A program made the position numbers and the translations under genes. DNA of 17,765 nucleotides. It comes from Cyanobacteria bacterium P01_A01_bin.123. Lineage in GTDB: Bacteria; Cyanobacteriota; Cyanobacteriia; Phormidesmidales; Phormidesmidaceae. The notes beneath the pieces were generated by a model, which saw nothing but the letters and a program-made list of their open reading frames with translations, searched no databases and was not told the origin of the DNA. Positions 1-17,166 of the stretch are shown here, one piece after another (position 1 is the first letter of the stretch; each line of letters starts with the position of its first letter). Location: the NCBI GenBank assembly GCA_039815185.1, contig JBCBZT010000092.1, forward strand, positions 1-17,765. Reading direction: 5' to 3'.

Positions 1-131
1 GTACAACCCTAGTGTCTTTCTTTATCAACGGCCTTCGTCTCTGGTCAATGCTGAATACTCCTCTATGGGGAGCTTGGATATGACCGGACTACCTAATTGT
101 CATTAACCCTGATTAGCTGCCCATATAATTG

Positions 132-1145: not shown

Positions 1146-1169
1146 GAGGCTAAGATAATCAGTCTTACC

Positions 1170-1197
1170 TTGACGTGTACCAAATAGAGTATAGTCT
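1170..1197 (+). promoter_or_regulatory. Putative sigma70 promoter of the resolvase, overlapping res
   Basis: TTGACG (1170-1175), 16 nt, TAGTCT (1192-1197). Overlap with res matches Tn3-type autoregulation. Confidence 0.4.
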
Positions 1198-1208
1198 AAT
1201 TGGCACAC
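1175..1208. promoter_or_regulatory. res site I-like palindrome (resolvase binding/crossover site)
   Basis: GTGTACCAAATAGAG-TATA-GTCTAATTGGCACAC is an imperfect inverted repeat around a central TATA, between divergent tnpA and resolvase. Related half-sites AATGGCACA (1217-1225) and TAATTGGTACA (1260-1270). Confidence 0.7.
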
Positions 1209-1262
1209 TAAAATGGAATGGCACAGCAGGGGTTTCAGCCCTCTATTCTCAGCAAGGTTTAA

Positions 1263-2501
1263 TTGGTACAAAAAACGGTTGCTATTTATTGTCGAGTTTC
1301 GACAACAGACCAATCTTGTGAACGTCAGGCGCAAGACTTGTTGTTCTATGCCCAAAAAGCTGATTTCAACGTTGTTGGTGTTTGGAAGGAGACCGCTTCA
1401 GGCACTAAGCAAAATCGGGTTGAGCGACAAAAGGTGATGGAGCTGGCGCAGGCTCGAAAGATTGACGCCATCCTGGTAACGGAAATGACCCGGTGGGGGC
1501 GCAGCACCTTAGATCTGATTCAAACGCTACAGGAATTGCAGAGCTGGGATGTTTCTTTGATTGCACAAACTGGGCTTCAGTTCGATTTGACCACGCCTCA
1601 AGGACGACTGATTGCCCAGTTGATGGCAGCACTAGCTGAGTTTGAGCGCGATTTAGTCAGTGAGCGGGTGCGCTCTGGACTAGCTGCTGCCAAGGCCAGG
1701 GGCAAGGTGCTGGGCAGGCAACCTGGCCAACGTCCGAAGTCTGACCGACTTGAGCCACAGGTGATACAGATGGTGGAAGATAAGGTTCCCTATCGCACGA
1801 TTGCCCATGACTTGAGACTTAGTAAAACGACCGTAACTGAAATCGTCAAACGCCACCGGCAAGCGCATCCTGATTTTCAATCCCCAAACTCTAAAATGGC
1901 TACTCGCAAGAAGACTCAGTCCATCTACCAGTTCAAGATTACGCTCAGAGATATCCGGCCACCCATTTGGCGGCGGGTGCAGGTGCGTAGTGATGCCACA
2001 CTAGGGCATTTGCATTGGGTCATTCAGTTTGCGATGGGGTGGACCAACTCCCACCTACACTCATTTTCAATTCAGGGGGTGGACTATTCTATGGCTATGC
2101 CCGACTTGGGCCTTGATGACTTGGACATGCTCAATGAGCAGCCAGTCAAGTTAAGCAAGGTCGTTACCGGGGAGAAGTTTAAGTTTTTCTATCTCTATGA
2201 CTTCGGCGATTCCTGGGAGCATGAAGTCATAGTCGAAAAGGTACTTACTGCTGAGAAAGATACTCACTATCCTGTCTGTATTAAGGCTAAAAGGGCCTGC
2301 CCACCTGAAGATTGTGGGGGAACTTGGGGGTATCAGGAGCTGCTAGAAGCGATTAAAGATCCTGAGCATCCTGAACATGCCTTGAGGCTCGAATGGTTAG
2401 GCACGTCCTTCGACCCAGAGGAGGCTGACCTCGATGAGATCAATGATCTGCTCAAGACAATTCCTCATGATACGGCTAAATTTAACGGCTACATCCCTTG
2501 A
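1263..2501 (+). CDS. tnpR: Serine recombinase (resolvase) fused in frame to a pRiA4b ORF-3-like domain
   Basis: TTG start. AIYCRVST (catalytic Ser), TRWGRS, AEFERDLVSERVRSGLAAAKARG..LGR and a C-terminal HTH. From Met at 1896: YQFKITLRDIRPPIWRRVQV, LHWVIQFAMGWTNSHLHSF, YLYDFGDSWEHEV, RACPPEDCGGTWGY, typical of the pRiA4b ORF-3 family. Confidence 0.9.
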   Translation: MVQKTVAIYCRVSTTDQSCERQAQDLLFYAQKADFNVVGVWKETASGTKQNRVERQKVMELAQARKIDAILVTEMTRWGRSTLDLIQTLQELQSWDVSLIAQTGLQFDLTTPQGRLIAQLMAALAEFERDLVSERVRSGLAAAKARGKVLGRQPGQRPKSDRLEPQVIQMVEDKVPYRTIAHDLRLSKTTVTEIVKRHRQAHPDFQSPNSKMATRKKTQSIYQFKITLRDIRPPIWRRVQVRSDATLGHLHWVIQFAMGWTNSHLHSFSIQGVDYSMAMPDLGLDDLDMLNEQPVKLSKVVTGEKFKFFYLYDFGDSWEHEVIVEKVLTAEKDTHYPVCIKAKRACPPEDCGGTWGYQELLEAIKDPEHPEHALRLEWLGTSFDPEEADLDEINDLLKTIPHDTAKFNGYIP

Positions 2502-2518
2502 CATGAAAGGGATACAGC

Positions 2519-2556
2519 CTTAGCGTAGTTTTCTGTTCCATTACTACTCAAACCCC
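2519..2556 (-). repeat. 38-bp Tn3-family terminal inverted repeat
   Basis: Reverse complement is GGGGTTTGAGTAGTAATGGAACAGAAAACTACGCTAAG: exactly 38 nt, terminal GGGG, internal GAAAA and ACGCTAAG. Confidence 0.92.
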
Positions 2557-3153
2557 ATCGCTCAAGACTCGCCGCTAGCCGCCCCTGAAATCAATGGGTT
2601 TCTTGACTGGCTTCGACATCCCGACGATGGCACCCCGCCCCGAGGGCCTCGTCCGGGTGAAGGCAGTTTTTGTGTCGTCAACTATGCTTCGGGAGCAGAG
2701 AATATGGTTTGGAGCGATCGCCCCACGTTCATCATCCAGGGTAGTCCCCGCAGTTTGGCACTGTATCAGGACATCGACCAGGAGCCCATTTGGGAACATC
2801 CGGTCAATGATGCTGAGGTGGTGGTCTACACTGGCCCACCGCTGGAGCCCGATACCGTATACACCTTCCGGGCACGACACCCGCGCTTTGAGTCCAGCAT
2901 TTTCGAGCAGCGGGAACTGCGGACGATGAGCTTTGACGAGGAGATACAGACCACAGCCAACCTAATATCGCTGGAAGGAGAAATGCGTAATGGTGAGTCC
3001 GTAACAGAATCTGACATCGCGATCGCCAAGGCTGACTATTTTTGGCGATTTGGGTTAGAGGCTGAGGCGTGGGCCGCCACTTGGCCGTTGCAAAAGGGGT
3101 CTCCAGAAGTGACTGAAGCGATCGCCACTAGCGTTGAACATTTGTGTAAATAG
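2557..3153 (+). pseudogene. 5'-truncated DUF928-like protein interrupted by the Tn3 element
   Basis: The frame of ORF 2704-3153 is open back to the IR (IAQDSPLAAPEINGFLDWLRHPDDGTPPRGPRPGEGSFCVVNYASGAENMVWSDRPTF...). Further upstream there is no ATG before a TAG at 2521 inside the IR. RG..C..SDRPTF, YTGPPLEP..Y and A..FW..GL..EA resemble DUF928 proteins, which often neighbour CHAT genes. Three HIP1 sites. Confidence 0.6.
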
Positions 3154-3228: not shown

Positions 3229-3256
3229 TGAATAAGCTGGCAACCTTCAGAGATAG
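3229..3256 (+). promoter_or_regulatory. Shared bipartite upstream motif, copy 1
   Basis: TGAATAAG-ctggcaacctt-CAGAGATAG, 30 nt before ATG 3287. Confidence 0.65.
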
Positions 3257-3286
3257 GCTGCTAAGTAGTGGACTGAGAGAAGAAAA

Positions 3287-6200
3287 ATGGTGCTGAACAA
3301 GAAACTGACCGGTAGCTTGATGTCATTAGTGTTGGCGATTAGCAGCCCCTCTGGAATTCCTAATGAAACAGCCTCAGCATCACCTCATCAGCTTGCCCAA
3401 GTGGCACCCACCTCTGTCACAGATCGCCTTGACAGCAATAGTCAGGTACTTCATGACGGCAGCTACTACAACATCCATACCTTTGAAGGGCAAGCTGGAG
3501 AAGTCATCAATATCGAGCTGGTTAGTGAAGAGTTTGACACTTATCTAATTCTCTTAGGACCGGATGAACAGCTTGTAGCGGAAGATGATGACGGCAATGG
3601 TGGTACGAATTCTCAGATTGTAGTGACGTTGCCCACTACAGGGATTTATCAGATTCTTGCTAACGCATATGGTGTTGGAGAAATCGGGCAGTACACCCTT
3701 ACCCAGAATTTTGCCTCTGATGATAATGGCACTAGTAATCTTGCAAGGCTCACTCAAATCACTCCAAACTCAATCACTGGGCAACTAGATGAAAATAGTG
3801 AAACCTCAGAAGGTGGACAATACTTTGATCTTCATTACTACGAGGGAACCGCAGGAGAAACTATCACCTTTGAACTAGACAGTGAGGATTTCGATGCTTA
3901 CTTACTTTTGCTAGGACCATCAGGCGAGGTTATTTCTGAAGACAATAACGGTGGAGAGACTACCAATGCAAGACTTACATTTGAACTGACAGCTACTGAT
4001 ACTTACACACTTGTTGCGAGTACTTACTCTTTTCACGAGAAAGGCGAATACACGTTAGCATGGCGTCAAGGCTCAGAAGTTGAACGTTCTTTAGGTAGAG
4101 CAGATTTTCTAAGAAATCAAGCCTTTGATTTGGGTAGCCAAGGCCAATTTATTGAAGCTGAGTTTCTATACCGAGAAGCCTTAAGTATTCGAGAGTTACA
4201 TTTGAGTGCACGACATCCCGATGTCGCACAAATTCTTGATGAATTGGCACTATTGAATAGATCTCAGAATAAGTATGAGGAAGCCGTAGATCTTTATTTG
4301 AGATCACTGTCGATATTGCAGGCATATCGGGAAAATATTAAAGCTTCTTTCCCAGGGTCTGAAGATAGCTATGCCCCCATATCATTTTCTGGGGATTATC
4401 TTAACAGTGAGCGCGATCTCTCTAGAAGCCTACTACGTAACATCGAGCTACGTATAGGATATATCCTTTCAGATTTATCAGATATACACTTGATCCGAGG
4501 AGACTTTGAAGAGTCAGAGAACTATCGTCTAGCGTGTATTGAAATGTTTCCTGTGGTTTGCGGATATTCTTTGTCTGTCATAGAACCACTCATTGAAGCA
4601 ATTGAATTAAGCATGAGGGCGGAGGAATACGATAAAGCTATGTCCTTTTTGGAGAACATTGTAACTATAGAGGATGACGAGATAATTACGTTAGATTTTT
4701 TCCTCGCCTCTGATCTCGAAAAGATGCTTCATGTGGAAATCCTTAAGGAAACTAGTGATATTGCTGTTTCTTTGAGTTTAGAATCAAACGGTTCTCAATA
4801 CCCAAGATCAGCTAATCTTGCCATCTACACCATACTTAAACGTAAAGGTTTACTGCTAGAGACACAAATGAATGTTCAGCAAGAAATAACCTCGTTTATC
4901 CGCCAGGGAAGTCAGCCTACATCAGAAGAGGAAGTCTTGTTAAATCAACTATTACAGAGCCAGCGCGAATTAGCGAATGCTTACCACAACTCTAGCCTTC
5001 AACAAGATCAAAATAGAATAGCTGAACTAGAAGCTGACATTGACCGGATAGAATCTGAGCTGAGAAATTCTGAAAATATATGCATTTCTTATTTTAATTG
5101 CATACCCGTTGCCTCTGAAGACTATCATTCAGCCCTTGGCCCTGGAGACCCTTCGCCATATCCACGCTATGCAGAAGAATGGAATTTGTTGTTTTACAAC
5201 AACCGTATTGACTCAGGCATTGGTCTCATAACGGAACGAATTCCTAACAAAGGTGCGGTGGTAGAGTACGTTCGATATCAACCCTTTAGTTACACTGAAA
5301 TCGAAAATCGCTTCGGTTCTCCCCGCTATGCTGCTTACATCCTCTTCTCTGATGGCCGCATCGAAGCCATCGACTTGGGTAGTGCCGCCGAGATTGATGC
5401 GACAGTACAGGACTTCCTAGAGCTATTACAAAACCGTAATGCTGACTTTCAGAGGGCGGGAGCAAGACCGACTGTGCGCCAAGCAGATATCGAGCAGATG
5501 ACAGGCGACCTTAAAGCCCTCGTGTTCGACCCGATCGCCCCTTATCTGCAAGACACCGAGCATCTCCTTATCTCCCCCGACGGTCAGCTCAACCTGCTGC
5601 CCTTCGAGGCGATGCAAACCGAGGCGGGGGGTGAGTATCTGGTGCAGCAATACCAAATCAGCTACCTCAACTCTGGGCGTGACTTACTGAAGTTTGATGT
5701 CATTGAGCCCAGTCAAAATCCGGCGGTCATCGTCGCCAACCCCGATTATGAAACGGCTGACGGCACGGTCGTAGCTCAGGGACGCAGCACGAGCGACAAT
5801 CGTCGCTCCACCGAACTCAGCCAGTTGCAAGTCGGCCCCCTCCCCGGCACTGCCGCCGAAGCCGAAGCCCTTCGTCCCCTCCTCCCCAATGCCGAAATCC
5901 ACACCGAGGACGAAGCCACCGAAAACCTGCTCAAATCCGTGCAAGCGCCACGCATTTTGCACATTGCCACCCACGGTTTCTTTCTGTCCAACGTGGAACG
6001 CCCCGATCGCAATGCCCAATTCGGGGCTGGCCTCATCGCTAGCGATAATCCTCTCGGCAGTGCAATTACTCCCGGCGTCGTAACCGAAAATCCCCTCTTG
6101 CGCTCTGGTCTTGCTTTAGCGGGTTTCAACACCCGTAGCAGCGGCAGCGAAGACGGCGTCTTCACCGCGCTCGAAGCGTCGCAGCTCAACCTGTTCGGCA

Positions 6201-6511
6201 CCCAGCTCGTCGTCCTCTCCGCTTGTGACACCGGCCTTGGCGATATCAGCAACGGCGAAGGTGTCTATGGGTTGCGGCGGGCGTTTGCCCTGGCCGGAGC
6301 TGAAACTCAACTGCTCAGCCTCTGGCAAGTCAGCGACTTCGGTACCCAAAGCCTGATGGCCCGCTACTACGAAAACCTCACTGCTGGCATTGGCCGCAGC
6401 GAAGCCCTGCGAGAAGTGCAGCTAGAGATGATCGAGCAGGGCGGGGAGTACAGCCACCCTTACTATTGGGCTGCTTTTGTCTTAACTGGCGACTGGCGGC
6501 CACTGGAGTAA
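3287..6511 (+). CDS. Exported PPC-PPC-TPR-CHAT protease (1074 aa)
   Basis: Sec-like signal MVLNKKLTGSLMSLVLAISS. Two PPC-like beta domains (FEGQAGE...FDTYLILLGP...DDDGNGGTNS and a paralogous repeat, about 3410-3703 and 3767-4060). Kinesin-light-chain-type TPRs (HPDVAQILDELALL). CHAT motifs SPDGQLNLLPFEA, HIATHG (H896), LSACDTG (C980), SLWQVSD, HPYYWAAF. Confidence 0.93.
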   Translation: MVLNKKLTGSLMSLVLAISSPSGIPNETASASPHQLAQVAPTSVTDRLDSNSQVLHDGSYYNIHTFEGQAGEVINIELVSEEFDTYLILLGPDEQLVAEDDDGNGGTNSQIVVTLPTTGIYQILANAYGVGEIGQYTLTQNFASDDNGTSNLARLTQITPNSITGQLDENSETSEGGQYFDLHYYEGTAGETITFELDSEDFDAYLLLLGPSGEVISEDNNGGETTNARLTFELTATDTYTLVASTYSFHEKGEYTLAWRQGSEVERSLGRADFLRNQAFDLGSQGQFIEAEFLYREALSIRELHLSARHPDVAQILDELALLNRSQNKYEEAVDLYLRSLSILQAYRENIKASFPGSEDSYAPISFSGDYLNSERDLSRSLLRNIELRIGYILSDLSDIHLIRGDFEESENYRLACIEMFPVVCGYSLSVIEPLIEAIELSMRAEEYDKAMSFLENIVTIEDDEIITLDFFLASDLEKMLHVEILKETSDIAVSLSLESNGSQYPRSANLAIYTILKRKGLLLETQMNVQQEITSFIRQGSQPTSEEEVLLNQLLQSQRELANAYHNSSLQQDQNRIAELEADIDRIESELRNSENICISYFNCIPVASEDYHSALGPGDPSPYPRYAEEWNLLFYNNRIDSGIGLITERIPNKGAVVEYVRYQPFSYTEIENRFGSPRYAAYILFSDGRIEAIDLGSAAEIDATVQDFLELLQNRNADFQRAGARPTVRQADIEQMTGDLKALVFDPIAPYLQDTEHLLISPDGQLNLLPFEAMQTEAGGEYLVQQYQISYLNSGRDLLKFDVIEPSQNPAVIVANPDYETADGTVVAQGRSTSDNRRSTELSQLQVGPLPGTAAEAEALRPLLPNAEIHTEDEATENLLKSVQAPRILHIATHGFFLSNVERPDRNAQFGAGLIASDNPLGSAITPGVVTENPLLRSGLALAGFNTRSSGSEDGVFTALEASQLNLFGTQLVVLSACDTGLGDISNGEGVYGLRRAFALAGAETQLLSLWQVSDFGTQSLMARYYENLTAGIGRSEALREVQLEMIEQGGEYSHPYYWAAFVLTGDWRPLE

Positions 6512-6772
6512 TACCAACTTAGATTCACGTCGTTATCCACCAATGCCGACTTTTCCCTCTAGGGCCCACAAACTCAAACTTGATACCAGAGCTTAGCCCA
6601 TGTCTGCTAACGGAAACCTGGCATCAAACTCCATTGACGTGTTGCAGCAGAGTTAGGAGTGAGGAATGCGGAGTTTTGAGGTGGCAGTCCCCTTGCATTG
6701 GGCTTTTGGAAACTTGAGCAGTTCAGACGAAACGGCTGCTTGCTGTAATCAGTCAACCCATTGCTTCAGAAG

Positions 6773-6800
6773 TGTATAAGTTGTTCGCCATCAGATAGAT
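6773..6800 (+). promoter_or_regulatory. Shared bipartite upstream motif, copy 2 (degenerate)
   Basis: TGTATAAG-ttgttcgccat-CAGATAGAT, preceded by GAAG, 28 nt before ATG 6829. Confidence 0.5.
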
Positions 6801-6828
6801 GTCTGTGTGAACCAAGATTTACGGTGCC

Positions 6829-7599
6829 ATGATGTCTATCCCCAACGGTTTCATTCCCTCGCTACCGCTGACGATTCCAACGACCCTGGTCAAAACCGAT
6901 CACCCCCCTAGCGATCTATTCGTAATCTTGGCGATCGCTCACAAAGATTTCATTTGGGCTAATCATCATTACCAGCAAGGGCAATTTCCTGAAGCGTTAG
7001 CCAAGTTTGAAGCAGCCCTCAATTACTATACGCAAGCTCAAGAGACCACCGGTATGGGCCAAAGCCTCAATGGTTTGAGTGCGGTGTATTTGTCTCTAGG
7101 ACAACCGGAGCGATCGCTGATTTGCAGCCAAGCCGCCGCCGCCATTTTGGAGGATACTGAAGCGAAGTACGACTATGCGATCGCCCTCTACCAGCTCGGC
7201 CTTAGCCATTTTGAGCTGCAGCATATCGCCCAGGCTGAGCGCAGTTTTGAAAACGCACTCAAGCAGTTTTACCACCTGTCAGCTATTGACTATGAAAACC
7301 GCATCCTGATCGACCTTGGACGCATATATGCTCAGCAGCACAAATTTCTCTTCGCCCTCGCCTGCTACGAGTCCGTTCTGGACAGCTTGATCGTTAACCC
7401 ATTTCTGGAAAATCGCCGCGAGACGCTAAGTGCTGTGGTGCAGGCAGTGGCACAACTTAGCCAGCACGAAAAACTAGGAAAGGGAGCGATCTCGGCGTTT
7501 CAATCCGTGCTCGAAGAGTACAGTCTGGCCGCTTATCATCTACAAGTTGCATCTCACCTGCAACCCTCCCAGCAGCCTTTGCCAATGAGAACGGAATAA
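6829..7599 (+). CDS. Stand-alone tetratricopeptide repeat protein (256 aa)
   Basis: About four 40-aa TPRs (YQQGQFPEALAKFEAAL, LNGLSAVYLSLGQPERSL, LYQLGLSHFELQHIAQAE, LIDLGRIYAQQHKFLFAL). No clear signal peptide or catalytic domain. Confidence 0.85.
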   Translation: MMSIPNGFIPSLPLTIPTTLVKTDHPPSDLFVILAIAHKDFIWANHHYQQGQFPEALAKFEAALNYYTQAQETTGMGQSLNGLSAVYLSLGQPERSLICSQAAAAILEDTEAKYDYAIALYQLGLSHFELQHIAQAERSFENALKQFYHLSAIDYENRILIDLGRIYAQQHKFLFALACYESVLDSLIVNPFLENRRETLSAVVQAVAQLSQHEKLGKGAISAFQSVLEEYSLAAYHLQVASHLQPSQQPLPMRTE

Positions 7600-7645
7600 G
7601 GCGATTGCTTGTCGAAAAGTCTTGAAGCAAAAGATTGCCTGAAAG

Positions 7646-7673
7646 TGAATAAGCTCTCACAGCCCAGAGCTAT
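7646..7673 (+). promoter_or_regulatory. Shared bipartite upstream motif, copy 3
   Basis: TGAATAAG-ctctcacagcc-CAGAGCTAT, 37 nt before ATG 7711. Confidence 0.65.
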
Positions 7674-7710
7674 ATGCTGGTGTCAGCTCCAGAGATGAAG
7701 TTAACCTGCC

Positions 7711-10212
7711 ATGCATCATTTTCATAAGTTGCTCAGCCTAGCCTTCCTTATCCCCTACCTCCCAGGTCTTGCCACCGAGAGCTTAAATTATTCTGTGCTG
7801 TTTGCGACGAATGCTGTAGGTGCTCAGATATCCGACAAAGCTAGTTCCTTAGATTTATCAATGCGAGTTACTCAAGCTCATAGTACTAAAAGTGAAGCAG
7901 ATAGACTATTTTGGCTAGGCTATGAGCATTACAATAACGGTCAATTGACCGATGCTCTGCAAAATTGGCAAAGGGCCAGCTCGTTATACCGTGACATTGG
8001 AGACTTGGCTTCACTCGCTAGCACAATCGGCAATTTGGGCATCCTTTACACCGATCTGCATGACTACGAGCAGGCGATCAAACTTCAGAATGAGCAACTT
8101 GCGATCGCCCGACAAATCAACTCACCAGAGGCCGAAGCAAGTGCGTTATTAAGTCTGGGCATCGTCCAACAGCTGTTAGGCAATTATCGACAGGCCATCA
8201 ATCATTTTCAAGATAGTTTGTCGATCGCTCAAGCGATCGATGACGTCAGCAAAGAATTCCATAGCCTGAATAATTTGGGCGTTGTCTATGTTGCCTTAGG
8301 GCAGTACGAACAGGCATTGACCCTGTATGAGCAAGCCCTAGCGATCTCTCAGAGAACAGGCGACCATAGAGGAATCGGCCAAATGTTCCGTAATTTGGGT
8401 GTTGCCTACAGCGGTTTAGGGCAGGAAGAGCAGTCGATTGAGCTTCATTTAGAGGCACTCGCGATCGCCCGCTCGCGTAACGACGCCAATGGCGAAGGAG
8501 TCAGTCTCGGTAACATGGCAGCAAGCCATGTCAGGCTGGGGCAGTATGATGAGGCGTTAACCCTTTACCAGCAACGACTAATCCTTGCCAGGAGTTCGGC
8601 CGATATTCGGGGTGAGGCGAATAGCTTAGGGGGGTTAGGCGATATTTACCGACAGCAGGGCGACTATCAGCAGGCGATCGCCTTTTATGAACAAGAGTTG
8701 GCCTTAAACCGTGAAGTGGGCGATCTCAATGTTGAAAGTTCGGCTCTGGAAAATTTGGGCATTGCCTACCTAGCTAGCGGGGAACCTGAGCTAGCCATTG
8801 AATCTTTGACAGCGGCGAGTACCGTTACAGAATCCCTGCGTGATTCTAACCTGTCGGACATCGACAAAATTGCCCTCTTTGAAACCCTGATAAGTGGTTA
8901 CGAGTTTTTGCAACGGGCTTACATAGCGCAGCCTAACTATGAGTTAGCCTTCGAAGTAGCTGAACTCAGTAAGGCTCGTGCCCTGGCTGAGTTAGTTATC
9001 CAGAGTGAGAATGCCTCGACGATTGCCATAACCAGCGCCCAATCTCCCGATTTAAGCGCGATTCAAAGCTTGAGTCAGACTGAACGTAAAACGTTAGTCA
9101 CCTATTCGTTAGTGCCTGCAGATGAAGGCTTTGGGGCAGTACTCTATATCTGGTTGGTGTCACCCCAGGGAGAAATCATCTTCCGGCAGCAACCTCTCAC
9201 CGACATCAACCTCAGTGATCTAGTCATTGACACGCGCAATGCGATAGGGGTGCGAGGTACAGATCGCAACGCGCCTGTCCCCACCTACTCACCAGAACAG
9301 CTGGCACAACTCCAAGCCGAGCAAGACGAAAAACTCAGCCAGCTCCATGATTTGCTGATTGACCCGATCGCTGATCTCCTGCCTGACGATCCCAACCAGC
9401 CCGTAGTCTTTATTCCCCAAGACGAACTCTTCCTCGTCCCCTTCCCGGCATTGAAAGACGACAACGGCGACTACCTGATCGAAAACCACACGATTCTGAC
9501 CGCTCCCTCCATTCAGGTGTTGCAGCTCACTCACGACATCGCTGATTCTCGCAATGGCGCAACCACTGACCAGCCCGTTATTGTCGGCAATCCCACCATG
9601 CCCACCGTCACCTTCCTTACCGACGATGGTGAATTCGTCGATACACAACTCACGCCGTTATATGGCGCACTGCAAGAAGCCAATGCCGTCTCCGAGTTCC
9701 TGGGCACCTCAGCCTTAACGGGCGATCAAGCGACTGAATCTACTGTGAAACAACAGCTTGCCAGTGCCGACCTGATCCACCTTGCCACCCACGGCCTGCT
9801 GGAATACGGTGACCCGCGCGAAACCGGAACGCGGGATGTCCCCGGTGCCATTGCTTTGACTCCCGGCAATGGCGAAGACGGCTTGCTCACCGCCGCTGAA
9901 ATTTTGCAAATGGACTTGCAGGCTGATCTCGTGGTGCTCAGTGCCTGCGACACCGGACGCGGACGCATTACCGGAGATGGCGTGATTGGGCTCTCCCGCT
10001 CCTTTATTGCGGCGGGCGTGCCCAGCGTTGTCGTGTCCCTATGGGCCGTACCGGATGCGCCGACGGCTGACTTAATGACTGAGTTCTACCGCCAGCTTGA
10101 TGAGGGGCAGACCAAAGCCCAGGCCTTGCGACAGGCCATGCTTATTACGATGCAAGACCATCCTGATCCTAAAGATTGGGCCGCGTTTACGTTAATTGGT
10201 GAAAGTGAATAA
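7711..10212 (+). CDS. TPR-CHAT protease (833 aa), probable signal peptide
   Basis: Hydrophobic N-terminus, eight 40-aa TPRs, E.SKARAL linker, IPQDELFLVPFPAL, HLATHG (H694), LSACDTG (C746), SLWAVPD, PKDWAAF. Confidence 0.93.
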   Translation: MHHFHKLLSLAFLIPYLPGLATESLNYSVLFATNAVGAQISDKASSLDLSMRVTQAHSTKSEADRLFWLGYEHYNNGQLTDALQNWQRASSLYRDIGDLASLASTIGNLGILYTDLHDYEQAIKLQNEQLAIARQINSPEAEASALLSLGIVQQLLGNYRQAINHFQDSLSIAQAIDDVSKEFHSLNNLGVVYVALGQYEQALTLYEQALAISQRTGDHRGIGQMFRNLGVAYSGLGQEEQSIELHLEALAIARSRNDANGEGVSLGNMAASHVRLGQYDEALTLYQQRLILARSSADIRGEANSLGGLGDIYRQQGDYQQAIAFYEQELALNREVGDLNVESSALENLGIAYLASGEPELAIESLTAASTVTESLRDSNLSDIDKIALFETLISGYEFLQRAYIAQPNYELAFEVAELSKARALAELVIQSENASTIAITSAQSPDLSAIQSLSQTERKTLVTYSLVPADEGFGAVLYIWLVSPQGEIIFRQQPLTDINLSDLVIDTRNAIGVRGTDRNAPVPTYSPEQLAQLQAEQDEKLSQLHDLLIDPIADLLPDDPNQPVVFIPQDELFLVPFPALKDDNGDYLIENHTILTAPSIQVLQLTHDIADSRNGATTDQPVIVGNPTMPTVTFLTDDGEFVDTQLTPLYGALQEANAVSEFLGTSALTGDQATESTVKQQLASADLIHLATHGLLEYGDPRETGTRDVPGAIALTPGNGEDGLLTAAEILQMDLQADLVVLSACDTGRGRITGDGVIGLSRSFIAAGVPSVVVSLWAVPDAPTADLMTEFYRQLDEGQTKAQALRQAMLITMQDHPDPKDWAAFTLIGESE
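7888..8847 (+). repeat. Eight tandem 120-bp (40-aa) TPR-coding repeats
   Basis: Ungapped 40-aa periodicity of L.NLG..Y..LG.Y.QA. Confidence 0.85.
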
Positions 10213-10233
10213 GCTTTGCCCATCAAGAAATAG
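10206..10233 (+). promoter_or_regulatory. Shared bipartite upstream motif, copy 4 (overlaps the stop codon of the preceding gene)
   Basis: TGAATAAG-ctttgcccatc-AAGAAATAG, 58 nt before ATG 10292. TGAAAGTGAATAAGCT at 10200-10215 is identical to 7640-7655. Confidence 0.6.
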
Positions 10234-10291
10234 GTGTTCTTAGAACTGCAATATTCATTTGCTCACGTGGGAAAAAGGAGTCTGATTTACC

Positions 10292-12598
10292 ATGTCTCGT
10301 TTACGTCGTCGTCACTTTTTGCAACTCGCTGGAGCTAGCCTGGGAGCGATCGGTCTCAACCAGTTGGACTTTATGCAGCGGGGCGATCGCATGCATCGTG
10401 CCCTAGCTCAAAACACATCTCGTAAATTAGCCCTCTTGATTGGCATCAACGGCTATATCGAACGCCCTCTGGCGGGGTGTGCCAATGACGTGCGCTTGCA
10501 ATACGAGCTACTCGTGCATCGCTACGGATTTAATCCCCAAGACATTTTGATTGTGACCGACGAGTTATCTGCTAGCGGCTTAGACCTGCCTGCGCGTGAA
10601 ATTATCACGACCCCCACTCGACAGACTATAGTGGATGCATTCCGTGATCATCTTATCGACCAAGCTAAATCCGACGACGTAGCCATTTTTCACTATTCAG
10701 GGCATGGTTCTTACGTTGAAGATCCGCAGCCGCTCGATTATGAAGAATCCGAATACTTACAAATCTCTGGTTACAGCAACTTCCAGGGTTTGGTTGGCAC
10801 CCTCGTGCCGGTTGATACCAAAGAAACCGATAGTGCAGACACCGTCAACGATATTTTAGGCAGCACTATATTTTTGCTCAGCAAATTGGTGCCAACCGAG
10901 AACTTCACCACGATTTTAGATAGCTGTCATGCCGGTGGTGGTGTCCGTGGCAACTTGGTCTACCGCGCGATTGATCGCGAAGCTGGACAAGCTCGCAATC
11001 CTAGTCAGGTCGAGCTTAATTTGCAAGCAGACCTGATGGAAGAACTGCTGTTGAAAGATAGCACTGAATTGAAGGAGCTCCGTGAAGCTGGTATTGCCAG
11101 AGGTGTTGCCATGGGCTCGGCTCGTGCCAATCAGCTGGCTGCTGAAAAGCAACATGCAGGTTTTAAGGCAGGGATTTTCACCTATCTGCTCACGCGCTAT
11201 CTCTGGCAAGTTGGCCAGACAGAGTCGCTGGAAAGCATGTTTGTAGATTTAGCCCGCATCACTCGTGCTGTCGATGAAGGCGATCCTCAAGACCCCGTTT
11301 ATTTCATACAACCCGGAACTACCCTTGACCAGCAGCCCCCTTATCTCATGACTCCTGATCACCCCTTTGCCGATGCGGTGGTGCGAGAAGTCGTTGACGG
11401 GCAAACGGTAGAGCTATGGCTGGGTGGCATGACGCCGAATGCATTGAAGGCCAAAGATTCGATTTATGAAGCGTTGAATGCCAACAGAGACGTTATTGCT
11501 CGTTTGCAGCAACAAGGTCAGCTTAATGGCCTCAAAGTCAAAGCTCAGTGTATTGACGATCAGGGAAATACGATTGATTTGCCACCTGATGTAACAGCAG
11601 GAACTTTATTGCAAGAAGAAATTCGCGGTATTCCGACTGATTTCTCGTTGCAGGTGGGTTTGCATGAGTCGCTGGGAGATGATTTAGAGACGGTTCGCCA
11701 ACAGCTAGACCGAATTGACCGCGTGACTCCGGTGACAATTCCTGACAACCCTGCCGACGTGCTGATTGGCCGCTTTAGTAACAGCATCCAGCCACAGTTA
11801 GAAAATCTCGGCATTCGAAATCGCGCCGATATTGTTGAGTTGGAATCAGGCAGCTTTGGCCTGTTTAAAGAAAATCTCACGCCCCTGACCGATACGTTTG
11901 GCGCTGGATTTGAAAGTGGTGGGGAAGCGATCTTGCGACTATTTCCCCGTTTCAAGCTCTTACTCGCTCAGCAAGCATTGCAAAGCATGGTGAATACTAA
12001 CTCCACCGAGTTGGCCATTGATATGGCAATTGGCACCGTCGAGCGAGGTGGTATAGAAGTAGTGTCCAGTGATCCCTCCCGAAGGGATGCGGCTCCGGTG
12101 ATTCCACAGCTTACCGCTGGCGAAAACTTGTCGCTCAAGGTGACGAATAAGGAATCAACTTCTCTTTACGTCGCAGTGATTGCGACTGAAGATGATGGCG
12201 ATATGTACGTCTACCATCCCAGCGACTGGAATGCGCCGGAGATTCAAGCGGAGCTTGGTCCGGGTGAAAGTGTTGAGATTCCCAAATCAACCGATATCTT
12301 CGATCTACCTTTGAGGGGGCCTTCTGGCTTTTTCAATGTGTTGGTGATTGCCAGCCGCACGCAATTGCGTGATACCTTACGGGTGCTGAAGCGCATTAGC
12401 GAGCGTTCAGCTGATGTTTTTCCAATCTTTGATAGCTCTCGAGAAGCCTCACGCAGTACCGAAGATAGTGTGGGTAATATTTTAGACAGCCTGCTAGGTG
12501 ATGTCAGCCGCAATGCCCCCATTCAGACTCGCCGAGACGCAGCAGTAGACAACAATTCTGTCGTCACGTTCTCTGCCACGATTGAGGTAGTGGAATGA
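10292..12598 (+). CDS. Caspase-like (peptidase C14, orthocaspase/metacaspase) protein with Tat signal and C-terminal DUF4384-like domain (768 aa)
   Basis: MSRLRRRHFLQLAGASLGAIGL twin-arginine signal with ALA-Q cleavage site. RKLALLIGINGY..PLAGCANDV, HYSGHG (H138), DSCHAGG (C212). C-terminal GENLSLKVTN..LYVAVI...G.....P beta domain. RBS AAGGAG at 10275-10280. Confidence 0.92.
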   Translation: MSRLRRRHFLQLAGASLGAIGLNQLDFMQRGDRMHRALAQNTSRKLALLIGINGYIERPLAGCANDVRLQYELLVHRYGFNPQDILIVTDELSASGLDLPAREIITTPTRQTIVDAFRDHLIDQAKSDDVAIFHYSGHGSYVEDPQPLDYEESEYLQISGYSNFQGLVGTLVPVDTKETDSADTVNDILGSTIFLLSKLVPTENFTTILDSCHAGGGVRGNLVYRAIDREAGQARNPSQVELNLQADLMEELLLKDSTELKELREAGIARGVAMGSARANQLAAEKQHAGFKAGIFTYLLTRYLWQVGQTESLESMFVDLARITRAVDEGDPQDPVYFIQPGTTLDQQPPYLMTPDHPFADAVVREVVDGQTVELWLGGMTPNALKAKDSIYEALNANRDVIARLQQQGQLNGLKVKAQCIDDQGNTIDLPPDVTAGTLLQEEIRGIPTDFSLQVGLHESLGDDLETVRQQLDRIDRVTPVTIPDNPADVLIGRFSNSIQPQLENLGIRNRADIVELESGSFGLFKENLTPLTDTFGAGFESGGEAILRLFPRFKLLLAQQALQSMVNTNSTELAIDMAIGTVERGGIEVVSSDPSRRDAAPVIPQLTAGENLSLKVTNKESTSLYVAVIATEDDGDMYVYHPSDWNAPEIQAELGPGESVEIPKSTDIFDLPLRGPSGFFNVLVIASRTQLRDTLRVLKRISERSADVFPIFDSSREASRSTEDSVGNILDSLLGDVSRNAPIQTRRDAAVDNNSVVTFSATIEVVE

Positions 12599-12630
12599 AT
12601 TATTGAACCAATACTGATCTAGCCTCAAAC

Positions 12631-12672
12631 GAGCCCCGCACCAAAATTCTCTCTCAGTGAAAAGCGGGGCTC
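12631..12672. other. GC-rich inverted repeat (9-bp stem, 24-nt loop)
   Basis: GAGCCCCGC (12631-12639) / GCGGGGCTC (12664-12672). No U-tract follows. Confidence 0.55.
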
Positions 12673-12685
12673 AGCTCATAGAAAT
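12658..12685 (+). promoter_or_regulatory. Shared bipartite upstream motif, copy 5 (most degenerate)
   Basis: AG-TGAAAAGC-ggggctcagct-CATAGAAAT: 5/8 and 6/9 matches with the same 11-nt spacer, 33 nt before ATG 12719. Confidence 0.4.
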
Positions 12686-12718
12686 CTACCATTAACTCTT
12701 ATTAAACACTATTAACCC

Positions 12719-15700
12719 ATGCGCCACCCTGCTCGGCTGCTCGGCCTCGCCACCATCACCGCCTTACTCATCACGACCCTACCTACTACACTTTCCGCCT
12801 TACCCATTACCTCTGTACTGGCGCAAGAGGCCAGTCAAATAGGAGATCGGCAAGTCGAAGCTGATCGTCTGATGGGGCAGGGAGCAGAGCAATATAATAT
12901 GAATCAGTTTCAAACGGCCTTGCAATCTTGGGAACAGGCATTGGCAATCTATCAAGAGATTGAAGACCGAGGTGGAGAAGGCGCTGCCTTTGGAAATTTG
13001 GCGCTTGCTTATTATGGTTTGGGTCAGTATGAGAAAGCTATAGGCTTCTTCGAAAAACATCTCGAAATCGCTCGTGAGATCAGTGATCTCCAAGGCGAAG
13101 CCAGCGCATTAAACGGATTAAGTAGAATCCATAAGAACCTCGGTAACTATCAGCAAGCAATAGATTTCTACCAACAACAAATCACCCTTGCTCGAAATAC
13201 GGAAGATCGGCAGGAAGAAGTTAATGCTTTGGGCAACTTAGGTATCGCTTACAACGAGGTTGGGAATTATGAGCGAGCAATCGAATCTTTCGAGCAGTCT
13301 TTAACGATTGCTCGCGATATTGATGATTTTCAAGCTCAAGCTACCGTCTTAGGTGGTCTAGGTGTTGCTCATCGTAAGTTAGAAAACTACCAACAAGCCA
13401 TTGAATTTCATGAGCAAGCTCTTGTTATTGCGCGAGGCAGCAACAATCAAGACGAGGAATTCAGAAATCTAGCAAATTTAGCTCTTGCCTATAATCTTGC
13501 TGGAGAGTATCAGCAAGCCATCACTTTCAACGAACAAGCTCTTTATCTCGCTCGAGAGCTAGGCGACGCTAGCAGCGAGGTAATTGTCCTAGGAAATCTA
13601 GGCATCGTTTACCGCAACTTAGGGCAGTATGAGCAAGCCATTGAACTCTACGAGCAGCAGTTAACCATTGCCCGTGCCAACAACAATCGTCAGGGAGAAA
13701 GAAATGCTTTAGGCAACTTAGGCTTTGTATATTCTCAACTAGAGCAATATCAGCAGGCGATTGATGTCTATCTACAGCAAATTCCAATTTTGCAAGCATT
13801 AGAAGATATCCAAGGAGAAAGCCAAGCTCTGACACGTTTAGGGAATATGCACATTATCTTAGGGCAATATTCTGAAGCTATCGATACTTATAAGAAACTG
13901 CTTGCTAACGCCTATGATAACAGCGACTCTCGTCAGGAAATTACTACTCTAAACAGCCTTGGCGAGGTTTATTCTGAGTTGGGAGACTATCAGCAGTCTT
14001 TAGAAAACTATGAGCAATCTTTAGCCATTGCCGATGATCTCGATAATTCCCTGAGAAGTACGTTTATTAGAGCAGTACCTCTATTCGGTATTGTTCAAGC
14101 TAACCTTGGACTCCAGAACTATCAAGAAGCCATTCTTTTAGCTGAGAGAGCGCTGCCAGTTTTTGATGAAATCTTGTTGTTAGTAGAGAATGACCAAGAT
14201 TTAGTAGGAACGATAATGTCCGAGCAAGACGTTGAGTTCGTTAAACAAGCTAGAGACATTTTGGAAGAATACATCACAATTGCTCAGGAAATTTTTGCTC
14301 AAGCAGACGAAGGAGCTAGCTTGGATGATTGGAATAGTCTTTTCCCTCAATATCAGCAAGCTGCTGAAACCCAATATCAACAAACGATAGACTTTTATCA
14401 ACAGAGATTAGTGACGATTCGTCAGGCAGGAGACCGGGCTCAAGAGGCATCGTTATTAGGCAATTTAGGAAGTACTTATCGCCGACTAGGTCGACTTCAG
14501 CAAGCCATTGATGCCTACGAGCAGCAGTTGGCCATCACTAGCGATATCGAAGATGTTGCTGGACAGGGAGATGCCTTTAGCGGTTTGGGGCGCGTCTTCA
14601 ACGCTCAAGATCAACCGGAGTTAGCGATAGTCTTTCTCAAGTCGTCAGTGCAAGTGCGCGAATCCATCCGCGAAAATATCCAAGGACTCGAAACTAGAAT
14701 TCAGGAAGCTTACACTAACACCATTGCTAATGATTACCGCCTCCTAGCCGATCTACTGCTCGAACAAGGCCGCATTCCCGAAGCGCAGCAGGTGCTTGAC
14801 CTCTTGAAGCTCGAAGAACTGCGTGAGTTTACCAACACCCGTGCGACCTGGACGGGTAGTGAACTTGCTTACACCGCCGCCGAGCAATCCGTCATCGATG
14901 CCCACGGCAGTCTGATCGCTCTCGGTAGCGCCATCCTCACCTGCGAAGATACTAACTGCGCAGAGCTGAACAGCCTTTACGATCAACGCGAAGCCCTCAC
15001 CGCTCAATACAACGATCAGGTCAACCAGTTTGCCAACACCATTCGCGCCAACCGTCGAGATGATGAAGACTTTCAAAATCCACAGGAGCTAAGTGACGAC
15101 GCTAAATCGTTGCTCAGCGCCTACGCTGTCGAGGGGCAAACCCCAGTACTGATTTATCCCTTTGTGCTCGAAGACAAGCTGTGGCTGGTATGGGCGATTG
15201 AGGGTCGGGTGATTGGTAGTGCCGAAGTATCGGTAACCCAGAGCGAACTAGCGACCACCGTGCAGCGCTTTGGCGAATTGCTCACCGCACCCACCCGGTT
15301 AGACGAGCTGCAGGCCCAGGGCCAACAGCTTTACAACTGGATCATTCAGCCTTTAGAAGCTGAGCTGGCCGCTAACAATATTGACCATCTGATTTTCGTC
15401 AACGATCGCGTCACCCGCTACATCCCCATGGCGGCGCTCTACGATGGCGAGCAGTTTCTGGCCGAGCGCTATCAAATTTCCACCGTGCTCACCCCCGGCA
15501 CCACCGATACACGCAGTCGCTTGGCCGATGTCGAGTCCTCCCAGGTACTTGGATTGGGGCTCACCCAAGCCGTCGCCAACTTTAACCCACTGCCTGCGGT
15601 CGCCACCGAACTCGATCGCATCGTCCAGAGTGGCGACGACGACGCGATCGGCATTTATCCAGGCCAGGTTCTACTCAACGAAGCCTTTACGCTAGAGGCT

Positions 15701-16258
15701 TTAAAAGCTAACTTGCGACCTGATTATCAGGTACTGCACCTAGCGACTCATGCCGCCTTTGTGCCTGGTCGAGCGGATGAGTCATTTATTGTGATGGGCA
15801 ACGGCGATCGCCTCACCACCGCCGATATTGAAGACATGAATGCCCGGCTAGATAATTTACACCTAGTGATTCTCTCCGCTTGTCAAACGGCGGTGGGTGG
15901 CCCGGCAGGCGACGGGGCTGAAATTACGGGCATCAGTTCCTACTTTTTAGGCACAGACGATAGTCGCGCCGAAACAGTCATCGCCTCCCTGTGGGCAGTG
16001 AATGACAACAGTACTAGCGTCTTAATGCAGCGTTTTTATACCCTGCTCGCCACTGGCGAACTCACCAAGGCTGAAGCCCTGCGTCAAGCGCAACTCAGCC
16101 TGCTCTATGAAGAAGATGCCGAAACTCGCTTGGCGGCTGCCCGTCGGGGTGCACCCATCCCCACTGCCCGCGAAGGGTTCGATGTGGCTGTGGTCGAGCC
16201 GGGCTATCGACATCCCTACTACTGGGCACCGTTCATTCTGATTGGCAACGGGCTGTAG
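12719..16258 (+). CDS. Exported TPR-CHAT protease (1179 aa)
   Basis: Signal peptide ending VLA-Q. Ten tandem 40-aa TPRs, an insert, two more TPRs, then YRLLADLLLEQGRIPEAQQVLDLLKLEEL, DRVTRYIPMAALYDG, HLATHA (H1011), LSACQT (C1055), SLWAVND, HPYYWAPF. Confidence 0.93.
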   Translation: MRHPARLLGLATITALLITTLPTTLSALPITSVLAQEASQIGDRQVEADRLMGQGAEQYNMNQFQTALQSWEQALAIYQEIEDRGGEGAAFGNLALAYYGLGQYEKAIGFFEKHLEIAREISDLQGEASALNGLSRIHKNLGNYQQAIDFYQQQITLARNTEDRQEEVNALGNLGIAYNEVGNYERAIESFEQSLTIARDIDDFQAQATVLGGLGVAHRKLENYQQAIEFHEQALVIARGSNNQDEEFRNLANLALAYNLAGEYQQAITFNEQALYLARELGDASSEVIVLGNLGIVYRNLGQYEQAIELYEQQLTIARANNNRQGERNALGNLGFVYSQLEQYQQAIDVYLQQIPILQALEDIQGESQALTRLGNMHIILGQYSEAIDTYKKLLANAYDNSDSRQEITTLNSLGEVYSELGDYQQSLENYEQSLAIADDLDNSLRSTFIRAVPLFGIVQANLGLQNYQEAILLAERALPVFDEILLLVENDQDLVGTIMSEQDVEFVKQARDILEEYITIAQEIFAQADEGASLDDWNSLFPQYQQAAETQYQQTIDFYQQRLVTIRQAGDRAQEASLLGNLGSTYRRLGRLQQAIDAYEQQLAITSDIEDVAGQGDAFSGLGRVFNAQDQPELAIVFLKSSVQVRESIRENIQGLETRIQEAYTNTIANDYRLLADLLLEQGRIPEAQQVLDLLKLEELREFTNTRATWTGSELAYTAAEQSVIDAHGSLIALGSAILTCEDTNCAELNSLYDQREALTAQYNDQVNQFANTIRANRRDDEDFQNPQELSDDAKSLLSAYAVEGQTPVLIYPFVLEDKLWLVWAIEGRVIGSAEVSVTQSELATTVQRFGELLTAPTRLDELQAQGQQLYNWIIQPLEAELAANNIDHLIFVNDRVTRYIPMAALYDGEQFLAERYQISTVLTPGTTDTRSRLADVESSQVLGLGLTQAVANFNPLPAVATELDRIVQSGDDDAIGIYPGQVLLNEAFTLEALKANLRPDYQVLHLATHAAFVPGRADESFIVMGNGDRLTTADIEDMNARLDNLHLVILSACQTAVGGPAGDGAEITGISSYFLGTDDSRAETVIASLWAVNDNSTSVLMQRFYTLLATGELTKAEALRQAQLSLLYEEDAETRLAAARRGAPIPTAREGFDVAVVEPGYRHPYYWAPFILIGNGL
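12851..14050 (+). repeat. Ten tandem 120-bp (40-aa) TPR-coding repeats
   Basis: Exact 40-aa periodicity from QVEADRL to DDLDNS. Confidence 0.85.
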
Positions 16259-16267
16259 TGCCAAAAC

Positions 16268-16295
16268 TGAATAAGTCCTCCAGCGGCAGAGATAG
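16268..16295 (+). promoter_or_regulatory. Shared bipartite upstream motif, copy 6
   Basis: TGAATAAG-tcctccagcgg-CAGAGATAG, 41 nt before ATG 16337. Both boxes are identical to copy 1 while the spacer differs. Confidence 0.65.
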
Positions 16296-16335
16296 CTCTT
16301 GACAGAAGCGAATCACTCCCCTGGAGGACTTTTTT
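16273..16335 (+). terminator. 11-bp inverted repeat with T-tract that pairs with the Shine-Dalgarno sequence (terminator or anti-SD structure)
   Basis: AAGTCCTCCAG (16273-16283) / CTGGAGGACTT (16321-16331), running into a T6 tract. The 37-nt loop is long for a classical terminator. Confidence 0.45.
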
Positions 16336-16336
16336 G

Positions 16337-17128
16337 ATGAAATCTACTTCTTTTCTCAGTAATACGCTCACCAGCGTTGGCATTGCCTTGATTTTGCCGT
16401 TGGTTGCGCCTCCCGTTGAGGCCGCTGTAGAAGTCCCTGTTGCCAGCGATCGCCGCTTCCAAGCATTAGAAACTGACATCCTGGTGCAAGCGGGTGACTA
16501 CGATCAACTTGTTCAGGCAGGCTATGATGCCTTTCGGGCGGGCAACTACGAAGAGGCCTTGCAAGCGTTTGAGCAGGCCATTCGCCTTGATGCCAATCAA
16601 GAAGCAGCATGGACGGGTAAAGGCTTGAGCCTTTATTTCACAGAGCGTTATCGCGATTCGATCGCGGCTTTCACCACCGCACTGGAACTCAATGGGGATT
16701 CTTTTCTCGCTTGGCTGTGGATGGCCAATGCTCTGGATGTCACCAATCAGCTGGACTTGGCGCTGCAGGCATATGAGCAAGACACCCAACAAGCCCGCCT
16801 TCGACAACAAGCCCGAGACGATGAGAGCATTCGCGTCGCTGTCGAAGGTAAATTTGGTCAGGCCAAACGACGGTTTGGGCTCGGACGTGTCATGGCTAAA
16901 CTCGCCCAAACCGCTGAAGCCATGATTGCCATTACCTGTTTGGTGATGAACTTGGAGAAACGGCTACGCCGTTTTGTTGTCTGGCTTTGGAGGGTGTTGA
17001 TGTGCTTACTACGTGGTTATCAGGCAGATGTGTGCTCCTTTGCAACTCAGTTAAGCGATGATTGGCGAAAACCTTCGACCATCAGCAAGGCAATACTGAC
17101 CACCTCTGGACTCCCCGATAACCCCTGA
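16337..17128 (+). pseudogene. Chimeric ORF: signal peptide + 34-aa TPRs (to about 16780) fused in frame to an IS5-family transposase C-terminus
   Basis: RBS GGAGG at 16323-16327 favours ATG 16337. TPRs GNYEEALQAFEQAIRLDANQEAAWTGKG. After YEQ the sequence switches to QQARDDESIRVAVEGKFGQAKRRFGLGRVMAKL...IAITCLVMNL. Confidence 0.8.
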
Positions 17129-17156
17129 GATTTTTATTGAGTTTTTCAGCACACCC
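16781..17156 (+). mobile_element. IS5-family insertion sequence remnant (3' end with terminal IR)
   Basis: R..VEGKFG.AKRR..L.RVMAKL DDE tail. Ends in TTTTTCAGCACACCC (reverse complement GGGTGTGCTGAAAAA) followed by TAAG. Confidence 0.8.
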
Positions 17157-17166
17157 TAAGTAGTAC

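Follow-up and report, generated by a model that had tools for sequence, protein, structure and literature searches.

A fixed-spacing bipartite motif in a cyanobacterial TPR-CHAT protease array as the probable promoter of an insertion-bearing sigma factor

The stretch analyzed here (the window) is the whole of contig C33, 17,765 nucleotides (nt) long, in the 133-contig assembly G000 of Cyanobacteria bacterium P01_A01_bin.123, which, judged from its relatives, appears to be a filamentous-type cyanobacterium. It carries an array of TPR-CHAT and caspase protease genes preceded by copies of a bipartite motif, TG(A/C)ATA(A/G)G-N11-(C/T/G)AG(A/C)NNTA. From sequence comparison and structure models, this motif is most likely the -35/-10-type promoter of a sigma factor of about 450 amino acids (aa) that heads a protease-gated regulon. 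The system is best read as a sigma regulon that regulates itself, is gated by a protease and comprises exported TPR-CHAT proteases with variable N-termini. The factor is encoded in related genomes, at the head of a module adjoining the array. The window itself holds no sigma gene, as a preliminary description of this DNA had noted and a scan of open reading frames (ORFs) and families confirmed.

Six copies of the motif had been listed in that description, and a check of the sequence found all six strings in place, on the plus strand and with 11-nt spacers. They are given here with scores from an independent matrix, built from 99 promoters of the regulator's own gene (self-promoters), all from other genomes.

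3229..3256, plus strand: consensus copy, TGAATAAG-N11-CAGAGATAG, before the PPC-TPR-CHAT gene; score 25.1
6773..6800, plus strand: variant copy, box 2 without the otherwise invariant TA, before the small TPR gene; score 13.8
7646..7673, plus strand: consensus copy before the 833-aa TPR-CHAT gene; score 24.1
10206..10233, plus strand: promoter copy before the caspase gene; score 19.8
12658..12685, plus strand: decayed relic before the 1179-aa TPR-CHAT gene; score 2.2
16268..16295, plus strand: consensus copy before the TPR gene at 16334; score 25.1

The copies end 30, 28, 37, 58, 33 and 38 nt before the start codons at 3287, 6829, 7711, 10292, 12719 and 16334, respectively. Four of the six are consensus copies, the one at 6773 is a conserved variant, and the one at 12658 is a decayed relic. 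With up to three mismatches allowed, the consensus matched four times against 0.04 matches expected, and at least four matches occurred in none of 200 shuffles. Over the whole of G000 the independent matrix gave 7 sites scoring at least 22 (column-shuffled mean 0.4) and 24 scoring at least 18 (mean 6.1). A matrix made from the six sites ranked five of them at the top in 8.09 Mb and the sixth 23rd, which is a circular test. The copy at 3229 is identical in genome G014 in boxes and spacer, and the variant at 6773 recurs before the matching gene in G014, G215 and G216. The stop codon of the upstream gene falls inside box 1 of the copy at 10206, which in G014, G009, G215 and G216 has its boxes kept and its spacer changed. 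The relic at 12658 aligns to an intact TGAATAAG-N11-CAGAGCTAT that G215 has upstream of its matching gene; in G014 it is more decayed. The contrast between conserved boxes and a variable spacer, noted earlier for the window, extends across genomes whose sigma proteins are about 40% identical. The description had also assigned every gene a promoter of its own; this applies to five of the six genes at best, because the copy at 12658 is a relic, and the 1179-aa gene at 12719 is probably read through from the caspase promoter. No Rfam element was matched in the window, and sigma-70 consensus sites and terminators occur there at or below shuffle level.

In G014, whose caspase is 96% identical, the array extends upstream into four further genes. 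This module encodes, in order, a 445-aa protein (the regulator), a DUF1822-like protein, an 819-aa CHAT-CHASE2 membrane protein and a DUF928-like protein, and a perfect TGAATAAG-N11-CAGAGATAG stands before the 445-aa gene. The module of G215 is 92% identical to it and lies in an island with 15 scored motif copies, 13 of them just before an ORF on the same strand. Genome-wide pattern matches fall mostly inside one island of about 58 kb around the module (13 of 17 in G014 and 12 of 14 in G215; reversed controls 0). Among 108 loci the DUF1822 gene comes next in 89 of the 93 with enough flank. An EACC2-CHAT-CHASE2 gene (the name EACC2 was assigned by architecture) is present in 60 of 80 sigma loci and a DUF928-like gene in 46 of 74, and the DUF928 model was matched in 13 of 32 DUF928-like members. 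A second module lies in the same G014 island in the opposite orientation (C11, 775959-781714; loci L056-L057). In its self-promoter and at nearby genes, box 2 takes the forms CAGC(A/C/T)(A/C)TA, a hint of paralogue-specific -10 boxes. A full module with motif copies is also found on plasmid pNPUN01 of Nostoc punctiforme PCC 73102 (L355, NC_010631.1 107928-121707; NPUN_RS34160 onward), where it adjoins a lanthipeptide/NHLP export cluster with two motif-like sites upstream (93257, 93472). Sigma-like genes of 225 aa (G014, L054:10286-11942) and 403 aa (G000:C109, 91381-93855) are linked to DUF1822 as well, so DUF1822 pairs with several sigma subfamilies.

Homologues of the regulator were found in 57 of the 201 genomes of the class that were sampled. 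The 198 hits included 193 full-length proteins, of which 143 remained after removal of those at least 90% identical or with less than 200 nt upstream. A matrix made from the window only reached a score of at least 14 in 14 of 30 upstream regions of sigma homologues, with 0 in antisense and 0 in coding sequence; for the 143 regions it gave 68 sense and 9 antisense matches. With a refined matrix, 100 of the 143 homologues have a self-promoter. De novo counting of gapped 4-mers returned the motif as the top long-gap signal in the regulator upstream regions. The spacer is 11 nt in 83 of the 143 regions, against 4 in antisense, and each other spacer from 7 to 15 was found 0-4 times. A strict form of the motif is found in 33 of the 57 genomes with a sigma homologue (77 sites) and in 5 of the 144 without one (5 sites); the reversed control gave 7 sites. 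Of these 82 strict sites 70 were fetched and classified: 8 lie before the regulator and 24 before TPR-CHAT, TPR, caspase or EACC2 genes. In all, 32 of the 70 sites lie before genes of these kinds or sigma genes.

The regulator is very likely an unannotated cyanobacterial sigma-70-type factor of about 450 aa with sigma2 and sigma4 domains and insertions, as its structure model indicates. The model of the G014 protein (m374dbe4a04a7) has a predicted local distance difference test (pLDDT) value of 85.9. Residues 1-155 match sigma2 domains, with 98 residues aligned at Z 7.4 and a root-mean-square deviation (rmsd) of 3.7 in one case and 94 aligned at Z 7.3 and an rmsd of 3.0 in another. For residues 285-373 the match is to sigma4 domains (sigmaE region 4: 68 aligned, Z 5.1, rmsd 2.3). 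The two domains stand in the right order, with an insertion between them and a C-terminal extension. The top ten Foldseek matches are all sigma factors (best E 0.066). The regulator profile aligns over 298 columns (probability 91%, E 1e-6) to the C109 protein of G000, which passes the TIGR02937 sigma model and also precedes a DUF1822 gene. Atlas neighbours of the regulator (0.92-0.95) carry Sigma70_r4. Its consensus FDPxxxSLxTW resembles sigma region 2.3. A sequence search of solved structures gave nothing meaningful. The preliminary description had proposed a promoter for an alternative sigma factor of the extracytoplasmic function (ECF) kind. The sigma reading is supported by the fixed spacing and orientation (83 of 143), the copy before the sigma gene, the co-occurrence over 201 genomes and the sigma-70-like fold; the factor is not a classical small ECF protein, having about 450 aa and insertions.

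A number of points weigh against these interpretations. No self-promoter lies within 600 nt of 43 of the 143 homologues, and the strict pattern is missing from 24 of the 57 sigma-positive genomes. This pattern was made degenerate after the self-promoters of some of the tested genomes had been seen, and the genome co-occurrence count includes kin, which are not independent. Among the 70 classified sites, 21 lie before other ORFs and 17 have no called ORF downstream. Structural Z values of 5-7.4 are moderate, and values below 8 can reflect common folds. Foldseek gave no match at E ≤ 0.001, the G014 regulator matches no Pfam or NCBIfam sigma model, and Sigma70_r4_2 matches weakly in 2 of 32 members. 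No copy of the closest sigma was found in the 133 contigs of G000 by tblastn, blastn or profile search. Co-evolution of protein and DNA was considered and rejected. In the 143-homologue set, the residue after Gln351 of the sigma4 helix is Val with TGA in 31 of 34 cases and Tyr or Phe with TGC in 47 of 47; it changes once on the tree, so that the pairing is a clade signature only. All it shows is that the TGAATAAG/CAGAGATAG boxes of the window bear the signature of the G014-type clade.

Modelling supports the binding of the sigma factor by DUF1822. The modelled complex scored 0.78 and the best control 0.18; among reference pairs, 116 of the 157 solved ones and 2 of the 215 mismatched ones attained this mark (approximate, own alignments used). 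The model runs have at least 56% of contacts in common, with a partner pLDDT of at least 75. The interface includes sigma residues 352-369, with DUF1822 over the sigma4 recognition helix, and this helix and the invariant DWAILND stretch touch the DUF1822 N-domain via Trp42 and Glu124/125. The DUF1822 protein of G014 (L173:356-1441, minus strand) models as a restriction-nuclease-like, PD-(D/E)xK-like N-domain (Z 9.0, rmsd 3.6, 122 aligned) and an immunoglobulin (Ig)-like C-domain. An active nuclease was rejected, as no Asp or Lys is kept as in a PD-(D/E)xK site, by column counts only. The linker between the two domains, a low-confidence loop in the model, carries [LMFVAY]R[SG] in 75 of 89 proteins (background 16.6%), with RSP in 39; about a dozen linkers, mostly of one sub-clade, are without it. 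All 30 EACC2-CHAT-CHASE2 proteins compared keep the catalytic His251 and Cys295, and the CHAT domain is placed in the cytoplasm because both residues precede the first membrane helix. The DUF928-like protein and the EACC2 part each have an invariant Arg in an N-terminal stretch rich in Gly (R65 in the former; R56, mostly as LRG, in the latter); both are candidate Arg-specific cleavage sites.

In the proposed mechanism DUF1822 would be the anti-sigma factor. A periplasmic signal at CHASE2 would activate the cytoplasmic CHAT domain, which would cleave DUF1822 within its conserved linker, at (L/M)R|S (R227 in the G014 protein). Once released, the sigma factor would transcribe its own gene and each exported protease gene, each from its own promoter, with transcription predicted to start about 6-9 nt beyond the TA of box 2. 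With the adjacent module cut off by a Tn3-family element, the promoters of the window would in this genome either depend on a sigma acting in trans, most likely the C78 paralogue, or be orphaned. The genes and mobile elements of the window are as follows.

1..2518, no strand: Tn3-family element with a DUF4158 transposase piece and a resolvase gene
132-1355, minus strand: DUF4158 transposase piece, part of the Tn3-family element
1263-2501, plus strand: resolvase-pRiA4b ORF3 gene, part of the Tn3-family element
2519..2556, no strand: 38-bp terminal inverted repeat, its reverse complement beginning GGGG, abutting the DUF928-like remnant
2557..3153, plus strand: headless rest of the DUF928-like gene that ended the sigma module, without its start codon and signal peptide
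3287..6511, plus strand: PPC-TPR-CHAT, 1074 aa; His/Cys motifs intact; probable signal peptide (by eye)
6829..7599, plus strand: small TPR protein, 256 aa; no evident signal peptide
7711..10212, plus strand: TPR-CHAT, 833 aa; His/Cys motifs intact; probable signal peptide
10292..12598, plus strand: caspase (Peptidase_C14) with DUF4384, 768 aa; His/Cys motifs intact; twin-arginine-like N-terminus (RRRHFL)
12719..16258, plus strand: TPR-CHAT, 1179 aa; hydrophobic N-terminus; His/Cys motifs intact
16334..16781, plus strand: 5' part of an exported TPR gene, interrupted after about 16781 by transposase (DDE) sequence

On the evidence of its sequence, the Tn3-family element has truncated the adjacent sigma module at 2556 in this genome. 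The repeat at 2519-2556 is presumably of Tn3 type. An intact, near-identical copy of the DUF928-like remnant, with its signal peptide, is found at locus L176. Misassembly of the junction was ruled out, since a contig from a separate study (run X2) spans it without differences. At the other end of the array, positions 16782-17763 hold transposase (DDE) sequence followed by an ISAzo13-family transposase piece, so that mobile elements bound the array on both sides. In G014 and G215 the gene interrupted here at 16334 is intact and encodes 357 aa. All four window proteases have kept their catalytic His/Cys motifs. N-termini resembling export signals were seen by eye in five of six proteins, one of them twin-arginine-like, and two passed a hydropathy threshold. 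Compared with the same slots of G014 (C11), the CHAT-bearing halves of the window CHAT genes are 79-99% identical per 100 residues, and most N-terminal TPR parts of the genes at 3287-6511, 7711-10212 and 12719-16258 are 15-46% identical. This replacement of TPR-CHAT N-termini follows the pattern of polymorphic receptors. Swapping of N-termini with the promoters kept suggests exchangeable sensing modules under a constant switch.

Elsewhere in G000, which has 30 CHAT-domain matches, high-scoring motif sites are found at C49:113614, C95:68433, C8:34689, C125:21193, C124:109897 and C119:56958, before genes for a paralogous caspase, TPR-CHATs and secreted-looking proteins. On C43 (110840-112033, minus strand) the motif precedes a truncated EACC2-CHAT gene of 378 aa without CHASE2, followed by two long exported-looking genes. 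Together the dispersed sites may form a small regulon with TGA and TGC subtypes.

Other explanations of the motif were considered. It could be the site of the same conserved protein acting as an activator with the housekeeping sigma factor, or of an unrelated island-borne regulator, and this is regarded as unlikely. The missing Pfam or NCBIfam sigma match of the G014 protein and the structural Z below 8 are compatible with such a role, and the two ATA cores are separated by 21 bp, or two turns, a distance also possible for tandem regulator sites. However, the boxes are neither palindromic nor good direct repeats by column counts, and none of the 17 sigma-70 consensus sites, a number at shuffle level (14.6), falls at a motif copy. 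The sigma2 and sigma4 folds in order and the alignment of the family to a curated sigma also speak for a sigma factor. A reading without a sigma, in which the motif is left over from the duplication of promoter-leader segments or marks a junction of cassette recombination, is highly improbable. Some homology blocks with G215 do start or stop at motif copies (6770, 7678, 16261), a downstream GCTG-TGTCA leader is common to several copies by descent, and genes are shuffled between strains. Yet across genomes with sigma proteins about 40% identical it is the boxes that are kept and the spacers that change. Lone genes and the sigma gene have the motif upstream as well, and it always points toward the downstream gene; moreover, no integrase was detected among the window proteins, and other breakpoints fall inside genes.

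If the promoter reading is right for the family, the window promoters could nevertheless be orphaned and silent here, a lesser but substantial possibility. The matching sigma would then have been lost, and promoters of the TGAATAAG subtype would not be recognized by the C78 paralogue. The C78 protein, at 42%, is the nearest sigma to the G014 copy that was found in G000 (a further paralogue on C113 is 29% identical, with no own site found), and the C78 self-promoter is different, TGCATAGG-N11-GAGAAATAG. In the same direction, the G000 assembly lacks the second end of the Tn3 element, and the array shows decay, with an insertion sequence in the 16334 gene and the relic at 12658. On the other hand, C78 carries the set of sigma, DUF1822, EACC2-CHAT-CHASE2 and DUF928-like genes, its sigma belongs to the valine clade with TGA self-promoters in 31 of 34, and TGAATAAG copies persist before the C49 caspase, the C43 EACC2 gene and the C125 TPR-CHAT. 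As the assembly consists of 133 contigs and breaks inside the transposase, the module with the sigma orthologue may only be missing from the assembly.

As to the biological role of the sigma regulon, immunity or kin recognition is the preferred guess, and envelope stress is the rival. A tentative and rather doubtful extension is a two-compartment, caspase-like sensing cascade in multicellular cyanobacteria that would work as a self-amplifying immune or kin-recognition circuit. The exported TPR-CHAT arrays with their rapidly swapped N-terminal TPR regions would be a variable receptor repertoire. On ligand, the TPR-CHATs or the exported caspase would cut the secreted DUF928-like protein at its invariant Arg, and the product would fire the CHASE2 receptor. 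Its cytoplasmic CHAT would cut the dead-nuclease-fold anti-sigma DUF1822, and the freed sigma would re-transcribe the whole receptor array. Many TPR-CHAT and caspase genes of filamentous cyanobacteria have no assigned role, and the motif ties a defined subset of them to one sigma family. The promoter boxes, the start position, the anti-sigma partner, the cleavage bond and the catalytic residues are concrete predictions, and N. punctiforme PCC 73102, with the full module on pNPUN01, is a genetically tractable strain. If this is correct, cyanobacteria would have a second insertion-type sigma family, and caspase-fold proteases would provide a general way of linking periplasmic sensing to transcription; the family would also offer orthogonal sigma/promoter pairs.

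No published description of the promoter or regulon was found in the literature covered, with subscription papers outside that coverage. A search for evidence on transcription start sites likewise found none: the motif words, CHAT and DUF1822 are absent from four of five supplementary files of PMC5580265 and three of five of PMC3610870, and PMC11119718 has no mention of DUF1822, CHAT or HetZ. The comparisons below refer to the available parts of the papers cited. Neighbourhoods of EACC2-caspases with an ECF sigma and DUF1822, ending in a transcriptional response, have been predicted computationally (PMC8195603). As in Kaur et al. 2021, the modules described here combine a constant EACC2-caspase fused to a transmembrane (TM)/CHASE2 sensor with sigma and DUF1822 (PMC8195603). 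The adjacent sigma, DUF1822 and caspase with variable sensor that mark these neighbourhoods were found in relatives; in the window only the last gene of the sigma module survives. That account, in its available part, is without a promoter, regulon, DUF928 partner or cleavage site, and it calls DUF1822 a TPR protein (PMC8195603), whereas the model obtained here is nuclease-like plus Ig-like.

The CHAT protease Csx29 of the Csx29-Csx30-CASP-sigma system similarly relieves an anti-sigma, with sigma motifs in its own locus (PMC10028731). Unlike in type III-E CRISPR, the trigger here would be periplasmic and not RNA (PMC10028731). No Cas family was found among the ten window proteins scanned, and PADLOC gave generic TPR and caspase matches only. 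The III-E sigma model does not match the G014 sigma, and the related C109 sigma matches below the cut-off. In Myxococcus xanthus the ECF sigma DdvS is likewise controlled via a CHAT-domain membrane protein, DdvA, in which a periplasmic CHAT with an incomplete active site is joined to a zinc-binding anti-sigma in one protein (PMC11506125). In contrast, the CHAT here is placed in the cytoplasm and its His/Cys are invariant; the putative anti-sigma is soluble and a protein of its own. The SAVED-CHAT/PCaspase/PCc-sigma cascade also has a CHAT protease and a C14 caspase encoded with a sigma (bioRxiv 10.1101/2023.06.23.546230). Unlike in that cascade, no SAVED or cyclic-oligonucleotide input was seen here, and the caspase and TPR-CHATs appear to be exported and to be targets of the sigma.

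In Anabaena PCC 7120, HetZ is an insertion-bearing ECF sigma inhibited by PatU3 (PMC13342950), and HetF cuts PatU3 at R117|S118 in the context Y-R117|S-P-E (PMC9457339). G000 has its own HetZ above the NCBIfam cut-off, followed by a PatU-like gene (C99, 15102-17307; L103), and in many PatU-like homologues a conserved LAGLVL stretch is followed by an Arg-Ser motif. Homology of the present sigma to HetZ was not detected (no HetZ model match at E ≤ 1; profile-profile probability 1.4-1.6%), nor was homology of DUF1822 to PatU (0.1-0.2%). The HetZ promoter is TCCGGA-N16-17-TGNA, whereas box 1 here is TG(A/C)ATA(A/G)G, with no TCCGGA-type -35. The sensor here is CHASE2 in place of TPR, and the targets are exported proteases in place of heterocyst genes. 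Both systems have a membrane CHAT protease with a periplasmic domain and a bipartite promoter of fixed spacing. The HetF system cuts its cytoplasmic inhibitor after Arg (PMC9457339), like the candidate site in the DUF1822 linker. The HetZ sigma of about 400 aa is of ECF type, bears an insertion and is co-transcribed with its inhibitor (PMC13342950), a layout similar to the one described here. The present system falls outside both HetZ/PatU and type III-E membership and has no detectable HetZ/PatU homology; by analogy, it may work like HetF-PatU3-HetZ.

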